Shown here piece after piece: positions 978-8,698 of a DNA stretch of 64,000 nt. The stretch lies in assembly GCF_009931435.1 (NCBI RefSeq), contig NZ_CP043414.1; one strand, written 5' to 3'. This DNA comes from Escherichia coli. Lineage in GTDB: Bacteria > Pseudomonadota > Gammaproteobacteria > Enterobacterales > Enterobacteriaceae. A program made the position numbers and the translations under genes. How positions within the stretch are numbered: position 1 is the first letter of the stretch; the number at the start of each line of letters is the position of its first letter. The notes under the pieces are model-generated. The model was not told the DNA's origin and searched no databases. It saw only the letters and a program-made list of their open reading frames with translations.

Positions 978-3113
978 TTGCTTAATCCGATCGTTCGTAA
1001 ATTCCAGTACGGCCAACACACCGTGACTCTGGAAACCGGCATGATGGCTCGTCAGGCTACTGCCGCTGTTATGGTTAGCATGGATGACACCGCGGTATTC
1101 GTTACCGTTGTTGGTCAGAAAAAAGCCAAACCAGGTCAGGACTTCTTCCCGCTGACCGTTAACTATCAGGAGCGTACCTACGCTGCTGGTCGTATCCCAG
1201 GTAGCTTCTTCCGTCGTGAAGGCCGCCCAAGCGAAGGCGAAACCTTGATTGCGCGTCTGATTGACCGCCCGATTCGCCCGCTGTTCCCGGAAGGCTTCGT
1301 CAACGAAGTTCAGGTTATCGCCACCGTGGTTTCTGTTAACCCGCAGGTTAACCCGGATATCGTTGCGATGATTGGTGCTTCCGCAGCACTTTCTCTGTCT
1401 GGTATTCCGTTCAATGGTCCGATTGGTGCTGCCCGCGTAGGTTACATCAATGACCAGTACGTACTGAACCCGACTCAGGACGAACTGAAAGAGAGCAAAC
1501 TGGATCTGGTTGTTGCCGGTACAGAAGCTGCCGTGCTGATGGTTGAATCTGAAGCTGAACTGCTGAGCGAAGACCAAATGCTGGGCGCAGTGGTGTTCGG
1601 TCATGAACAACAGCAGGTTGTTATTCAGAACATCAATGAACTGGTGAAAGAAGCCGGTAAACCGCGTTGGGATTGGCAGCCGGAGCCGGTAAACGAAGCG
1701 CTGAACGCGCGCGTTGCTGCGCTGGCTGAAGCTCGTCTGAGCGATGCTTATCGCATCACCGACAAACAAGAGCGTTATGCGCAGGTTGATGTCATCAAAT
1801 CTGAAACCATCGCGACGCTGCTTGCTGAAGATGAAACCCTGGACGAAAACGAACTGGGTGAAATTCTGCACGCTATCGAGAAAAATGTTGTTCGTAGCCG
1901 CGTACTGGCAGGCGAACCGCGTATCGACGGTCGTGAAAAAGATATGATCCGTGGTCTGGATGTGCGTACTGGCGTGCTGCCGCGTACTCACGGTTCTGCG
2001 TTGTTCACCCGTGGTGAAACGCAGGCACTGGTTACCGCAACGCTGGGTACTGCACGTGACGCACAGGTTCTTGATGAACTGATGGGCGAACGTACTGACA
2101 CCTTCCTGTTCCACTACAACTTCCCTCCGTATTCCGTAGGTGAAACTGGCATGGTCGGTTCTCCGAAGCGTCGTGAAATTGGTCACGGTCGTCTGGCGAA
2201 GCGCGGCGTGCTGGCAGTAATGCCGGATATGGACAAATTCCCGTACACCGTACGTGTAGTGTCTGAAATTACCGAATCCAACGGTTCTTCTTCTATGGCT
2301 TCCGTGTGCGGTGCGTCTCTGGCGCTGATGGACGCAGGTGTGCCAATCAAAGCTGCTGTTGCGGGTATCGCAATGGGGCTGGTGAAAGAAGGCGACAACT
2401 ACGTTGTACTGTCTGACATTTTGGGCGACGAAGATCACCTGGGCGATATGGACTTCAAAGTTGCGGGTTCCCGCGACGGTATCTCTGCACTGCAGATGGA
2501 TATCAAAATTGAAGGTATCACCAAAGAGATCATGCAGGTTGCGCTGAATCAAGCTAAAGGTGCGCGTCTGCATATCCTGGGCGTCATGGAGCAGGCGATC
2601 AACGCGCCGCGTGGTGATATCTCTGAGTTTGCACCGCGTATCCATACCATCAAGATCAATCCGGACAAGATCAAAGACGTTATCGGTAAAGGCGGTTCTG
2701 TTATCCGTGCCCTGACCGAAGAAACTGGCACCACCATCGAAATCGAAGATGACGGTACTGTGAAGATCGCAGCGACCGACGGCGAGAAAGCGAAAAACGC
2801 TATTCGTCGTATCGAAGAAATCACCGCAGAAATCGAAGTGGGCCGCGTCTACAATGGTAAAGTGACCCGTATCGTTGACTTTGGCGCGTTTGTTGCCATC
2901 GGCGGCGGTAAAGAAGGTCTGGTCCACATCTCTCAAATCGCCGACAAGCGTGTTGAGAAAGTGACCGACTACCTGCAGATGGGTCAGGAAGTTCCGGTGA
3001 AAGTTCTGGAAGTTGATCGCCAGGGCCGTATCCGTCTGAGCATTAAAGAAGCGACTGAGCAGTCTCAACCTGCTGCAGCACCGGAAGCTCCGGCTGCAGA
3101 ACAGGGCGAGTAA
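978..3113 (+). CDS. pnp: polynucleotide phosphorylase (PNPase), 711 aa, TTG start
   Basis: ORF 891..3113; N-terminus [21 protein letters not shown] begins at the in-frame TTG at 978; RNase PH-like repeats, KH and S1 regions at C-terminus (…[28 protein letters not shown]…). Confidence 0.95.
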
Positions 3114-3123
3114 GGTTGCCATT

Positions 3124-3150
3124 TGCCCTCCGCTGCGGCGGGGGGCTTTT
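3124..3150 (+). terminator. pnp rho-independent terminator
   Basis: gccctccgctgcggcggggggc hairpin followed by tttt just after pnp stop. Confidence 0.75.
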
Positions 3151-3221
3151 AACCGGGCAGGACGCCTTGTTAGCAACCGGGAACAGGACGTTCATTCAAC
3201 CGTGGTCTTCGGGAGTGGGAA

Positions 3222-4106
3222 ATGAAGCCTTTTTTGCGCTGGTGTTTCGTTGCGACAGCACTTACGCTTGCAGGATGCAGTAATACTTCCTGGCGTAAAA
3301 GTGAAGTCCTCGCGGTACCATTGCAACCGACTTTACAGCAGGAAGTGATTCTGGCACGTATGGAACAAATCCTTGCCAGTCGGGCTTTAACCGATGACGA
3401 ACGCGCACAGCTTTTATATGAGCGCGGAGTGTTGTATGATAGTCTCGGTCTGAGGGCATTAGCGCGTAACGATTTTTCGCAAGCGCTGGCAATCCGACCG
3501 GATATGCCGGAAGTATTCAATTACTTAGGCATATATTTAACGCAGGCAGGCAATTTTGATGCTGCCTATGAAGCGTTTGATTCTGTACTTGAGCTTGATC
3601 CAACTTACAACTACGCGCACTTGAATCGCGGGATCGCATTATATTACGGCGGTCGTGACAAGTTAGCGCAAGATGATCTGCTGGCGTTTTATCAAGACGA
3701 TCCCAATGATCCTTTCCGTAGTCTGTGGCTTTATCTCGCCGAGCAGAAGCTCGATGAGAAGCAGGCTAAAGAAGTGTTAAAACAGCACTTCGAAAAATCG
3801 GATAAGGAACAGTGGGGATGGAACATTGTCGAGTTCTACCTGGGCAACATTAGCGAACAAACGTTAATGGAAAGGCTCAAGGCGGACGCAACGGATAACA
3901 CCTCGCTCGCTGAGCATCTCAGTGAAACCAACTTCTATTTAGGTAAGTACTACCTAAGTCTGGGGGATTTGGACAGCGCCACGGCACTGTTCAAACTGGC
4001 GGTTGCCAACAACGTTCATAACTTTGTTGAGCACCGATACGCATTGTTGGAATTATCGCTCCTGGGCCAGGACCAAGATGACCTGGCAGAATCGGACCAG
4101 CAATAG
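3222..4106 (+). CDS. nlpI: TPR-repeat outer-membrane lipoprotein NlpI
   Basis: 294 aa; signal peptide with lipobox LTLAGC; TPR-like repeats; conserved pnp-nlpI-deaD order. Confidence 0.93.
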
Positions 4107-4285
4107 CTGACGTACACATCAGCCCGTAATCTTTTTTGATTGCCATCACCTTAACGGGTGAGGGCGTTGTTGTTCGTTAATACACCTACTTTGAGCCGGT
4201 TCACACTTTTCAATGAAAATTGCTGATCAATTTCATGATGAGTTATGTAGACTGGCCGCCATTAATTTTGAGGCACACGTACTAC

Positions 4286-6175
4286 ATGGCTGAATTCGAA
4301 ACCACTTTTGCAGATCTGGGCCTGAAGGCTCCTATCCTTGAAGCCCTTAACGATCTGGGTTACGAAAAACCATCTCCAATTCAGGCAGAGTGTATTCCAC
4401 ATCTGCTGAATGGCCGCGACGTTCTGGGTATGGCCCAGACGGGGAGCGGAAAAACGGCAGCATTCTCTTTACCTCTGCTGCAAAATCTTGATCCTGAGCT
4501 GAAAGCACCACAGATTCTGGTGCTGGCACCGACCCGCGAACTGGCGGTACAGGTTGCTGAGGCAATGACGGATTTCTCTAAACACATGCGCGGCGTAAAC
4601 GTGGTTGCCCTGTACGGCGGCCAGCGTTATGACGTGCAATTACGCGCCCTGCGTCAGGGGCCGCAGATCGTTGTCGGTACTCCAGGCCGTCTGCTGGACC
4701 ACCTGAAACGTGGCACTCTGGACCTCTCTAAACTGAGCGGTCTGGTTCTGGATGAAGCTGACGAAATGCTGCGCATGGGCTTCATCGAAGACGTTGAAAC
4801 CATTATGGCGCAGATCCCGGAAGGTCATCAGACCGCTCTGTTCTCTGCAACTATGCCGGAAGCGATTCGTCGCATTACCCGCCGCTTTATGAAAGAGCCG
4901 CAGGAAGTACGCATTCAGTCCAGCGTGACTACCCGTCCTGACATCAGCCAGAGCTACTGGACTGTGTGGGGGATGCGTAAAAACGAAGCGCTGGTACGTT
5001 TCCTGGAAGCGGAAGATTTTGATGCGGCGATTATCTTCGTTCGTACTAAAAACGCGACTTTGGAAGTGGCAGAAGCTCTTGAGCGTAACGGCTACAACAG
5101 CGCTGCACTGAACGGTGACATGAACCAGGCGCTGCGTGAGCAGACTCTGGAACGCCTGAAAGATGGTCGTCTGGATATCCTGATTGCGACCGACGTTGCG
5201 GCCCGTGGCCTGGACGTTGAGCGTATCAGCCTGGTAGTTAACTACGATATCCCGATGGATTCCGAGTCTTACGTTCACCGTATTGGTCGTACCGGCCGTG
5301 CGGGGCGTGCTGGTCGTGCGCTGCTGTTCGTTGAGAACCGCGAGCGTCGTCTGCTGCGCAACATTGAACGCACTATGAAGCTGACCATTCCGGAAGTAGA
5401 ACTGCCGAACGCAGAACTGCTGGGCAAACGCCGTCTGGAAAAATTCGCCGCTAAAGTACAGCAGCAGCTGGAAAGCAGCGATCTGGATCAATACCGTGCA
5501 CTGCTGAGCAAAATTCAGCCGACGGCGGAAGGTGAAGAGCTGGATCTCGAAACTCTGGCAGCCGCACTGCTGAAAATGGCACAGGGTGAACGTACTCTGA
5601 TTGTTCCGCCAGATGCGCCGATGCGCCCGAAACGTGAATTCCGCGACCGTGACGACCGTGGTCCGCGCGATCGTAACGACCGTGGCCCACGTGGCGACCG
5701 TGAAGATCGTCCGCGTCGTGAACGTCGTGATGTTGGCGATATGCAGCTGTACCGTATTGAAGTGGGCCGCGATGATGGTGTTGAAGTTCGTCATATCGTT
5801 GGCGCGATTGCTAACGAAGGTGACATCAGCAGCCGTTACATCGGTAACATCAAGCTGTTTGCTTCTCACTCCACCATCGAACTGCCGAAAGGTATGCCGG
5901 GTGAAGTGCTGCAACACTTTACGCGTACTCGCATTCTCAACAAGCCGATGAACATGCAGTTGCTGGGCGATGCACAGCCGCATACTGGTGGTGAGCGTCG
6001 TGGTGGTGGTCGTGGTTTCGGTGGCGAACGTCGTGAAGGCGGTCGTAACTTCAGCGGTGAGCGCCGTGAAGGTGGTCGTGGTGATGGTCGTCGTTTTAGC
6101 GGCGAACGTCGTGAAGGCCGCGCACCGCGTCGTGATGACTCTACTGGTCGTCGTCGTTTCGGTGGTGATGCGTAA
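4286..6175 (+). CDS. deaD: cold-shock DEAD-box ATP-dependent RNA helicase DeaD/CsdA (629 aa)
   Basis: ORF 4220..6175; start set at [13 protein letters not shown]; motifs [12 protein letters not shown] (LVLDEADEM), [13 protein letters not shown]; Arg/Gly-rich C-terminal tail. Confidence 0.95.
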
Positions 6176-6200
6176 TCAACGCTGAACAGCGAACACAATC

Positions 6201-6280
6201 TGTAAAATAATATATACAGCCCCGATTTTAACCATCGGGGCTTTTTTTCTGTCTTTTGTACTCGTGTACTGGTACAGTGC
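6201..6280 (+). promoter_or_regulatory. mtr control region: TyrR-box-like TGTAAA-N6-TATACA and TrpR operator-like palindrome tgtactcgtgtactggtaca
   Basis: motifs read directly upstream of mtr; mtr is known to be TrpR-repressed and TyrR-activated. Confidence 0.55.
6218..6250 (+). terminator. deaD rho-independent terminator
   Basis: agccccgattttaaccatcggggct hairpin + T7 run after deaD stop. Confidence 0.8.
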
Positions 6281-6328
6281 AATGCATAACAACGCAGTCG
6301 CACTATTTTTCACTGGAGAGAAGCCCTC

Positions 6329-7573
6329 ATGGCAACACTAACCACCACCCAAACGTCACCGTCGCTGCTTGGCGGCGTGGTGATTATCGGCGGCACCATT
6401 ATTGGCGCAGGGATGTTTTCTCTGCCAGTGGTCATGTCCGGTGCGTGGTTCTTCTGGTCAATGGCGGCGCTGATCTTTACCTGGTTTTGTATGCTGCATT
6501 CCGGCTTGATGATTCTGGAAGCTAACCTGAATTATCGAATTGGCTCGAGCTTTGACACCATCACCAAAGACTTGCTGGGCAAAGGCTGGAACGTGGTCAA
6601 CGGCATTTCCATTGCCTTTGTGCTCTATATCCTGACCTATGCCTATATTTCTGCCAGCGGTTCGATTCTGCATCACACCTTCGCGGAGATGTCGCTGAAT
6701 GTTCCGGCACGAGCTGCAGGTTTTGGTTTTGCGCTACTGGTGGCGTTTGTGGTGTGGTTGAGCACCAAAGCCGTCAGCCGGATGACGGCGATTGTGCTTG
6801 GGGCGAAAGTTATTACCTTCTTCCTCACTTTCGGCAGTTTGCTGGGGCATGTGCAGCCTGCGACATTGTTTAACGTCGCGGAAAGCAATGCGTCTTATGC
6901 ACCGTATCTGTTGATGACCCTACCGTTCTGTCTGGCCTCATTTGGTTATCACGGTAACGTGCCGAGCCTGATGAAGTATTACGGCAAAGATCCGAAAACT
7001 ATCGTGAAATGCCTGGTCTACGGTACGCTGATGGCGCTGGCGCTGTATACCATCTGGTTGCTGGCGACGATGGGCAACATCCCTCGTCCGGAGTTTATCG
7101 GAATCGCCGAGAAGGGCGGTAATATTGATGTGCTGGTACAGGCATTAAGCGGTGTATTGAACAGCCGTAGCCTGGACCTTCTGCTGGTCGTGTTCTCAAA
7201 CTTTGCAGTGGCGAGTTCGTTCCTCGGCGTAACGCTGGGTTTGTTTGACTATCTGGCAGATCTGTTTGGTTTTGACGACTCTGCCCTGGGCCGCTTGAAA
7301 ACGGCACTGTTGACCTTTGCACCGCCTGTCGTGGGTGGCCTGCTGTTCCCGAACGGATTCCTGTACGCCATTGGTTATGCTGGCTTAGCGGCTACCATCT
7401 GGGCTGCAATTGTTCCGGCGCTGTTGGCCCGCGCATCGCGTAAACGCTTTGGCAGCCCGAAATTCCGTGTCTGGGGCGGCAAGCCGATGATTGCACTGAT
7501 TCTGGTGTTTGGTGTTGGCAACGCACTGGTGCATATTTTATCGAGCTTTAATTTGCTGCCGGTGTATCAGTAA
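6329..7573 (+). CDS. mtr: tryptophan-specific permease Mtr (aromatic amino acid/H+ symporter family)
   Basis: 414 aa polytopic membrane protein [33 protein letters not shown]... Confidence 0.93.
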
Positions 7574-7579
7574 TCAGCG

Positions 7580-7685
7580 GTGCCTTATCCGACATTTCTG
7601 CTGCCTACACAATGCCTGATGTGCTTCGCTTATCAGGCCTACGTAGGACAGCGTTGCCAGCTCGGATAAGGCTTCCCACGTTAAA
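7580..7685. repeat. REP/BIME palindromic elements (2-3 units)
   Basis: gccttatccgacat..., gcttatcaggcctacgtagg..., ctcggataaggc units in the mtr-yhbW convergent gap. Confidence 0.8.
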
Positions 7686-7690
7686 ACACA

Positions 7691-8698
7691 CTATCCCAGT
7701 AACTCTTCCTTAACATCCATCGCCAGCTCAAACGAATGCAGGCGCGCCTGGTGATCGAAAATCTGCCCGTTAACCATAATCTCATCCGCGTCGGTTTCGC
7801 GCAGGATCGACTGCAAACCATGACGCACTTTCGCTTTATCACCCACCAGCGACATACTCAGCGCCTGCTGCACGCCATACTGCTCAGACGGTGACCAGAA
7901 CTGATCCATATTTTGAATCGGTGGCGGCAGTTGCCCGGTTTCACCGCGGCGCAGCTTCACAAAGGCTTGCTGCATTGAGGTAAACAGAAATTCAGCGTCG
8001 CGGTTGCTGTCGGCGGCGATAATATTGATGCACACCATCGCATACGGTTTTTCCAGTCGTGCCGACGGTTTGAAGTTGCTGCGATAAAGATGCAGCGCCT
8101 GGAATAGCATATCCGGTGCGAAGTGTGAGGCAAACGCGAACGGCAGACCAAGCTGCGCCGCCAGTTGTGCACTGTAAAGGCTGGAGCCTAATAACCACAC
8201 GGGGATTTTCTCGCCATAGCCTGGTACCGGGCGCACATGCGGATTGGGATCGCGGGCGTCAAACCAGTCCACCAGCTCCGCGACATCGCGGGGGAAATTA
8301 TCAATATCGCCGCTCATATGACGACGTAGAGCCATCATGGTTCGCTGGTCACTACCCGGAGCACGGCCCAGCCCCAAATCGATTCGCCCCGGATAGAGCG
8401 TATTGAGCGTGCCGAACTGTTCGGCGATCACCAACGGTGAGTGGTTTGGTAACATCACGCCGCCAGACCCCAGATGCAGCGTAGTGGTATTCGCCGCCAG
8501 ATAGCCAATCAAAACTGATGTTGCAGCACTGGCAATACCGGTCATATTGTGGTGTTCTGCCAGCCAGTAGCGATGATAGCCGCGCTTTTCAGCCAGACGG
8601 GCGAGGTCGAGAGAGTGGGAGAACGCTTCTCGCGCTGAAGAACCTTCTGGGATGGGGGCCAGATCGAGTAGCGAAAACGCAGTGGTTTTATCAGTCAT
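7691..8698 (-). CDS. yhbW: luciferase-like (LLM-class) flavin-dependent monooxygenase
   Basis: 335 aa ORF; [19 protein letters not shown]...; position after mtr. Confidence 0.85.

Follow-up and report, generated by a model that had tools for sequence, protein, structure and literature searches.

Organization of the deaD-mtr region

The DNA analyzed here is a stretch of 64,000 nucleotides from Escherichia coli, referred to below as the window. The neighborhood of interest comprises the consecutive genes nlpI, deaD, and mtr, all of which are located on the plus strand according to the list of open reading frames (ORFs) and the RefSeq annotation found under megablast matches. These matches were obtained by comparing the region with 5,426 complete E. 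coli genomes, 5,425 of which matched and annotated deaD and mtr under the match. The gene order in E. coli K-12 MG1655 is pnp-nlpI-yrbN-deaD-mtr, and pnp, nlpI, deaD, and mtr are co-oriented. The individual features are listed in the order of their window positions; negative positions are relative to the probable mtr transcription start at 6286.

3222 to 4106, plus strand: nlpI (ORF list).
4286 to 6175, plus strand: deaD coding sequence, 629 amino acids, starting with MAEFETTF and ending with the stop codon TAA at 6173 to 6175 (ORF list and RefSeq annotation of E. coli DNA that is the same or nearly so).
6171 to 6188, no strand assigned: candidate weak distal TyrR box, CGTAATCAACGCTGAACA, centered at about -106.5 and overlapping the deaD stop codon.
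6201 to 6218, no strand assigned: strong promoter-proximal TyrR box, TGTAAAATAATATATACA, centered at 6209.5, which is about -76.5 (one mismatch to the consensus, conserved spacing).
6218 to 6242, plus strand: predicted stem-loop of the deaD intrinsic terminator, with the stem AGCCCCGAT/ATCGGGGCT and the loop TTTAACC at 6227 to 6233 (terminator scan, RNA fold, and covariation).
6242 to 6248, plus strand: T7 tract, corresponding to the U tract of the deaD terminator and to positions -44 to -38 of the mtr promoter (sequence).
6249 to 6255, plus strand: putative weak -35 region, CTGTCT/TGTCTT (based on a distance of 17 to 18 bp to the -10 element and on the published 42-bp distance).
6257 to 6276, no strand assigned: TrpR operator, the palindrome tgtactcgtgtactggtaca, with the core GTACTCGTGTACTGGTAC at 6258 to 6275, which is -28 to -11 (likeness to the trp operator and conservation).
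6270 to 6278, plus strand: putative extended -10 element, TGgTACAGT, inside the TrpR operator (sequence).
6286, plus strand: probable mtr transcription start, resulting in a 43-nt leader (5' end of an mtr::gfp fusion, 7 nt after the -10 element).
6315 to 6320, plus strand: mtr Shine-Dalgarno sequence, GGAGAG.
6329 to 7573, plus strand: mtr coding sequence, encoding the tryptophan:H+ symporter of 414 amino acids (ORF list and RefSeq annotation).

The intergenic region between deaD and mtr has a length of 153 bp. Its layout from the deaD stop codon is TAA TCAACGCTGAACAGCGAACACAATC TGTAAAATAATATATACA GCCCCGAT tttaacc ATCGGGGC TTTTTTT ctgtctttt GTACTCGTGTACTGGTAC AGTG... The region is the same locus as the mtr regulatory region of K-12, from which it differs in two bases. 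Both are A/T differences, one of which lies in the spacer of the candidate weak TyrR box and the other in the terminator loop. The sequences of the strong box, the operator, and the promoter are the same in K-12 and the window, and there is no functional difference between the two regions. As far as the upstream gene is concerned, the mechanical ORF call for deaD begins at a TTG codon at 4220, which is 66 nt 5' of the RefSeq-equivalent ATG at 4286, and the RefSeq gene yrbN (26 codons) overlaps the deaD start in K-12. The C-terminal tail encoded by deaD (window positions 5990 to 6170) consists of Arg/Gly-rich repeats (GGERREGGR..), which show many length indels between genera in the alignment.

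For comparison among species, a genome scan with Mtr provided 80 loci from approximately 25 enterobacterial genera, which were right-justified on the operator. The alignment contained 67 distinct sequences, the TyrR boxes were counted over 71 loci, and the spacing of the T tract was determined over 70 distinct loci. The mtr orthologues examined all follow deaD, with the exception of that of Cronobacter dublinensis, in which mtr is preceded by a tryptophanase-like gene. A candidate orthologue in Klebsiella (locus L082, 1474 to 4257, oxytoca group) encodes a permease of 418 amino acids that is 79% identical to Mtr; it was rejected as a tnaB-type paralogue and not a second mtr, located directly 3' of the tryptophanase gene tnaA. 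A search of Rfam with window positions 3000 to 8000 gave no family match even at E values of up to 1 and no sign of a known small RNA from a 3' untranslated region (3'UTR) or of a known leader element. The elements described below, their conservation, spacing, covariation, and natural uncoupling were computed here, and the data on TyrR and TrpR binding and on the alpha-CTD of RNA polymerase were taken from the literature; we infer the exact -35 region, the transcription start, the coordinates of the weak box, and actual termination in vivo.

Hairpin and T tract downstream of deaD

The terminator scan retrieved a hairpin that starts 43 nt 3' of the deaD stop codon and has nine pairs, of which six are G-C, and a 7-nt loop. 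Seven T residues follow. Folding the 85 nt of RNA between positions 6176 and 6260 resulted in a minimum free energy of -19.2 kcal/mol (z = -2.96), and the hairpin alone had a value of -13.5 kcal/mol. The same minimum free energy fold predicts an additional small RNA hairpin, CGCU-GAAC-AGCG, at window positions 6180 to 6191, that is, between the TyrR boxes within the deaD 3'UTR. The small palindromes found here in other genera are different, an example being GCGTAAG-C-CTTACGC in Enterobacter, which includes the stop codon.

A number of observations were made on the conservation of this element. (i) The nine stem pairs in the 67 distinct sequences correspond to 603 cells, 99.3% of which are standard pairs, and double-sided changes (G-C to A-U, C-G to U-A, A-U to G-C, and others) were detected at five of the nine pairs. 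(ii) None of 500 shuffles was as good, and sliding the partner by one to three columns reduced the paired fraction to 28 to 58%. (iii) There were 37 G-U wobble cells in the stem, with 24 of them at a single pair. Since G-U wobbles keep the RNA helix but not the DNA palindrome, selection appears to act on the transcript, in keeping with a terminator. (iv) The loop sequence is essentially free, whereas the T tract and the GC core of the stem are nearly invariant. (v) In each of the 70 distinct loci, the T tract has 7 to 9 T residues; the distance from its end to the -10 element is exactly 24 nt in 68 of these loci.

The hairpin and the T tract thus behave as the intrinsic terminator of deaD, and termination at this site in vivo is what its sequence features predict. 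For the deaD 3' end, the Term-seq supplements of Adams et al. list only one site internal to deaD and one site antisense to mtr, with no entry between coordinates 3305800 and 3305999, and the TERMITe supplements contain no match. The element resembles canonical enterobacterial Rho-independent terminators in its GC-rich stem of 8 to 9 bp, a loop of 5 to 7 nt, the U7 tract, the distance of 43 nt from the stop codon, and the compensatory evolution of the stem. Unlike canonical terminators, it is encoded by DNA that falls entirely within the region from which the next promoter is activated, and its span is unusually constant, amounting to 22 to 23 nt across approximately 25 genera.

TyrR and TrpR sites of the mtr promoter

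The sequence TGTAAAATAATATATACA at 6201 to 6218 matches the TyrR consensus TGTAAA-N6-TTTACA at 11 of the 12 specified positions; its G-N14-C pair is formed by G6202 and C6217, which correspond to positions 2 and 17. In the 64-kb window this is the only site with no more than one mismatch, as compared to 0.14 sites expected and to 14 of 100 shuffles that contained one. When two mismatches were allowed, matches in the window occurred at chance level. A strong box, defined by the G-N14-C pair and at least 9 of 12 matches, was found in 68 of the 71 orthologous loci. The center of the strong box is separated by 42 to 43 bp from the center of the putative -35 region (about 6251.5 to 6252.5), corresponding to about 4.0 helical turns and placing both on the same helical face. 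These values can be compared with published data. In its passages on mtr, PMC4374768, a secondary account that cites Sarsero, Wookey & Pittard 1991, Sarsero & Pittard 1991, and Heatwole & Somerville 1991 for the TyrR and TrpR sites, states that a strong promoter-proximal TyrR box is centered 42 bp upstream of the -35 region, that a weak distal box is separated from the strong box by eight base pairs, and that TyrR activates mtr via the alpha-CTD of RNA polymerase. A distance of 42 bp from the box center at 6209.5 leads to position 6251.5, which fits CTGTCT/TGTCTT as the -35 region. Positions 6201 to 6218 agree with the location that PMC4374768 gives for the strong TyrR box of mtr. Repression of mtr by TrpR and its activation by TyrR are established (PMC5343134); according to the same paper, Enterobacteriales are the only group in which mtr is part of the TyrR regulon.

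The candidate for the weak distal box, CGTAATCAACGCTGAACA, agrees with the consensus at 8 of 12 positions and retains the G-N14-C pair. The gap between the 18-mer cores of the weak and strong boxes is 12 bp, which is equal to 8 bp if the boxes are 22-mers; TyrR boxes were presumably counted in this way, which would reconcile positions 6171 to 6188 with the published eight-bp separation. Conservation of this candidate is restricted to E. coli sensu stricto and two Citrobacter genomes. In E. whittamii, the C at position 17 of the weak box has been lost, and in several other genera a different candidate for the second box is found, about 21 bp upstream of the strong one. The second site seems therefore to be evolutionarily labile.

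The existence of a second box raises the question of whether the palindrome at 6219 to 6241 might itself be a protein-binding DNA site, either the second TyrR box or another operator, and not an RNA terminator. It is a perfect inverted repeat of 8 to 9 bp situated between two operators, and the passages on mtr in PMC4374768 place a second TyrR box nearby. We consider this reading extremely improbable, since there is no G-N14-C frame in 6219 to 6249 and no box with at least 7 of 12 matches in this segment of any locus, and since the loop is unconstrained and the 37 G-U wobble cells maintain pairing in RNA and not the palindrome in DNA. The hairpin was thus rejected as a second TyrR box, given the missing frame and the distal, not proximal, location of the weak box reported in the same passages of PMC4374768.

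The core of the TrpR operator shares 13 of its 18 bases with the K-12 trp operator GAACTAGTTAACTAGTAC, as read from the genome. It has paired half-sites containing ACT, and its segments GTACT and GTACTGGTACA are invariant in the 67 distinct sequences. The pattern used to search for the operator was partly fitted to the site, and its match was not counted. Like the operator of E. coli trpLEDCBA, the mtr operator is an 18-bp pseudo-palindrome with ACT-containing half-sites that overlaps the core promoter. The central CTAG motifs of the trp operator, however, read CTCG and CTGG in the mtr operator, which, unlike that of trp, covers the promoter spacer and the extended -10 element and works alongside an activator; its core reaches over the spacer into the first bases of the -10 hexamer (6273 to 6278). 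The nine bases at 6249 to 6257, which include the weak -35 region, lie between the T7 tract and the operator core. The -35 region is a poor match to TTGACA and varies between genera, and the -10 element reads TACAAT in many genera. An mtr::gfp translational fusion described in the supplement of PMC11878033 begins at the base equivalent to 6286, which that paper does not call a transcription start site; we consider this base to be the probable transcription start of mtr.

The order of TyrR box, hairpin, T tract, nine nucleotides, and operator is kept in the 67 distinct sequences from approximately 25 genera, a recurrence beyond chance, and can be seen in nearly all of the 80 loci. The distance between the box center and the -10 element was 63.5 bp in 53 loci, 62.5 bp in 10 loci, and 64.5 bp in 1 locus, resulting in a standard deviation of 0.39 bp. 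The mtr terminator was wanted as a control for the variability of terminator length. Scanning the DNA 3' of mtr for a terminator revealed no hairpin followed by a T tract and only a REP-like palindrome, GCCTGATGTGCTTCGCTTATCAGGCCTAC, at window positions 7600 to 7650, where mtr converges with yhbW. The length of the mtr leader was used instead, and its standard deviation in the loci of the spacing comparison was 6.0 bp, versus 0.39 bp for the distance from the box to the -10 element.

These data confirm much of the initial annotation, which had described a TyrR-box-like sequence directly 5' of the deaD terminator and a TrpR-operator-like palindrome directly 3' of it, so that the hairpin would sit between two regulator sites of the downstream gene. 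The TyrR box indeed abuts the hairpin at zero distance, with A6218 being at the same time the last base of the box and part of the first stem pair, and the hairpin is located between the two sites. Their assignment to mtr agrees with the position of the box given in the passages on mtr in PMC4374768 and with the control by TrpR and TyrR treated in the corresponding part of PMC5343134. The palindrome was correctly recognized as a TrpR operator, but it does not follow the hairpin directly, since the T7 tract and positions 6249 to 6257 intervene. In addition, naming two sites overlooked the published weak distal TyrR box, for which we propose positions 6171 to 6188.

Relationship between the deaD terminator and mtr activation

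Several loci provide natural cases in which the individual elements are uncoupled. Five lineages lack the TyrR box or have a degenerate version of it, namely, Cedecea neteri (L058), Enterobacter sp. Cy-643 (L062), Shimwellia (L080), a metagenomic relative (L084), and Erwinia sp. CPCC 100877 (L089), in which the hairpin, the T tract, and the operator are kept at the usual spacing. On the basis of these sequences, we suggest that TyrR control of mtr has been lost repeatedly. Cedecea and Enterobacter sp. Cy-643 contain AAACGGCAGTGATAAAA in place of the box. In Cronobacter sakazakii (L086, 2721 to 3000) and C. turicensis (L091, 285 to 612), the deaD terminator is found just after the stop codon and is followed by approximately 170 to 190 bp of unrelated DNA and then by the mtr promoter. 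The Cronobacter mtr promoter has neither an adjacent hairpin nor a TyrR box. In C. dublinensis (L092, 370 to 612), the tryptophanase-like gene (Beta_elim_lyase) is directly upstream of mtr, and the spacer in the other Cronobacter species may thus be the remnant of a tna-type insertion. The block ATTTTTTCTCCTTTTTGTACTC..GTACTGGTACAATGAATC is invariant in the three Cronobacter species, as is the T6 tract next to the -35 region, which has the promoter position of the T tract of the other loci and which no hairpin adjoins, whereas the DNA upstream has diverged.

A further case is E. coli strain 405 (NZ_CM132945.1; L090, 3075 to 3795), in which an IS200C element is present inside the T tract of the terminator, at the window equivalent of about 6246 to 6247. 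The junctions are GGGGCTTTTT/TGTGCAC and GATATTTA/TTTCTGTCTTTTGTACTCG, where the slash marks the boundary. The insertion cuts the U tract to T5 and places both TyrR boxes approximately 0.7 kb from the mtr promoter. There were 18 genomes among the 5,425 in which no single place covered at least 80% of the query 6165 to 6285, and similar disruptions may thus exist in other strains. Taken together, the uncoupled loci indicate that the terminator is independent of the box, that the promoter and the operator are independent of the hairpin, and that the box is kept only at an activating distance from the promoter.

It is very probable that two independent and already known functions, the termination of deaD transcripts and the TyrR- and TrpR-controlled promoter of mtr, are packed in one stretch of DNA. 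At the RNA level, the hairpin at 6218 to 6242 and the U7 tract at 6242 to 6248 would end deaD transcripts in a Rho-independent manner. At the DNA level, mtr would be driven by a promoter with a weak -35 region and an extended -10 element that starts transcription at about 6286. The Trp repressor shuts this promoter at the operator between -28 and -11. TyrR, bound four helical turns upstream of the -35 region at the strong box (center at about -76.5), activates it by contacting the alpha-CTD, and the candidate weak distal TyrR box lies near -106.5. The DNA of the hairpin spans -68 to -44, and the 30-bp terminator fills the 30 to 31 bp that separate the TyrR box from the -35 region in this activation geometry. 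Since the terminator exactly fills the activation spacer, the juxtaposition is best described as a packing or spacing constraint and not as a coupling between the hairpin and TyrR.

A similar promoter architecture is known from Enterobacter cloacae ipdC and from E. coli tyrP, where, as in mtr, a strong TyrR box precedes the -35 region on the same helical face and TyrR contacts the alpha-CTD; the corresponding class I-type TyrR activation by Phe, Tyr, and Trp is approximately 2- to 4-fold (PMC4374768). The ipdC box is located 33 bp (three turns) from the -35 region, in contrast to 42 bp (four turns) for mtr, where the extra room is filled by the deaD terminator. The passages on ipdC in PMC4374768 describe no terminator between its box and its promoter.

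The initial annotation had further proposed that the structure of the terminator and the binding of the activator might interact, for which we found no support. (i) The hairpin is an RNA structure, whereas the target of TyrR is double-stranded DNA. (ii) The G-U wobbles and the compensatory pairs of the stem point to selection at the RNA level only. (iii) The hairpin persists without the box, and the promoter and operator persist in Cronobacter and strain 405, where the hairpin has been moved. (iv) TyrR activates ipdC from its 33-bp distance with no such terminator described.

An interaction could alternatively take place through RNA polymerase traffic. TyrR might act as a roadblock that alters termination or read-through of deaD, or terminating polymerases might occlude the mtr -35 region and operator and displace TyrR, which would link the expression of deaD, for example, in the cold, to that of mtr. 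The zero distance between box and stem, a termination point only 1 to 2 bp from the -35 region, and the co-orientation of pnp, nlpI, deaD, and mtr are consistent with such an effect. However, the active site of a terminating polymerase would be about 30 bp or more past the box, and a polymerase releasing at about 6248 to 6250 would have its trailing edge well past the box, so that no steric clash with rebound TyrR is to be expected. The hairpin is moreover unchanged in loci without a box, and the box decays where the terminator has been moved from the promoter, which fits a box that serves the promoter only. The open literature searched does not link deaD, TyrR, and mtr. We therefore regard traffic effects of this kind as very unlikely, and two independent functions remain our preferred explanation.

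The spacer between the box and the -35 region could also be used twice. The T7 tract would then serve as a proximal UP-like site for the alpha-CTD recruited by TyrR, and the length of the hairpin would keep the box in helical phase. An UP element is an A/T tract between about -38 and -59 that increases promoter activity when bound by the alpha-CTD, and its proximal subsite has the position of the T tract (-44 to -38, counted from the probable start). In favor of such a use, activation of mtr depends on the alpha-CTD, as stated in the passages on mtr in PMC4374768; the T6 tract and the -35 region are invariant in the three Cronobacter species without an adjoining hairpin, where the upstream DNA has diverged; and the box-to-promoter spacing varies far less than the leader. 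However, the Cronobacter sample consists of three closely related species, and the conservation of the T tract outside Cronobacter is uninformative because the terminator needs a T tract anyway. The T run also differs from the A-rich UP consensus, and the five loci that lack a TyrR box have the same hairpin span of 22 to 23 nt, so that phasing need not hold its length. TyrR phasing as the cause of the constant hairpin length is thus weakened, and the constancy of the span is not attributable to it, as the boxless loci share the same span. In view of these arguments, a double use of the spacer is possible but rather unlikely. We judge as unlikely, too, the most far-reaching form of this idea, in which the terminator would be dual coded, with the DNA of the U tract being a docking site for the alpha-CTD, the four-turn box spacing having frozen the hairpin length throughout the Enterobacteriaceae, and polymerases from cold-induced deaD modulating mtr. 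In view of the nearly absolute constancy of the hairpin span and the T tract, which extends to the loci without a TyrR box, and of the T6 tract next to the Cronobacter promoter, the spacer DNA may have a promoter role of its own.

In the preferred explanation of two independent functions, all elements belong to known classes, the TyrR and TrpR sites are those published for mtr, and no new mechanism is involved. In the open literature searched, no paper was found that links deaD, TyrR, and mtr together, and the nesting of the terminator may thus not have been explicitly remarked upon. Consisting of textbook elements and an ordinary terminator, the arrangement has little significance beyond correct annotation. 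It does, however, cleanly illustrate that a terminator can lie within the DNA from which the next gene is activated and yet not be functionally coupled to it. If the T tract doubles as a UP-like element, the region would be a small and neat case in which one sequence carries both an RNA signal and a DNA signal, and such a dual use, if true, would be relevant to the design of compact synthetic operons and to the editing of mtr and deaD for tryptophan production.
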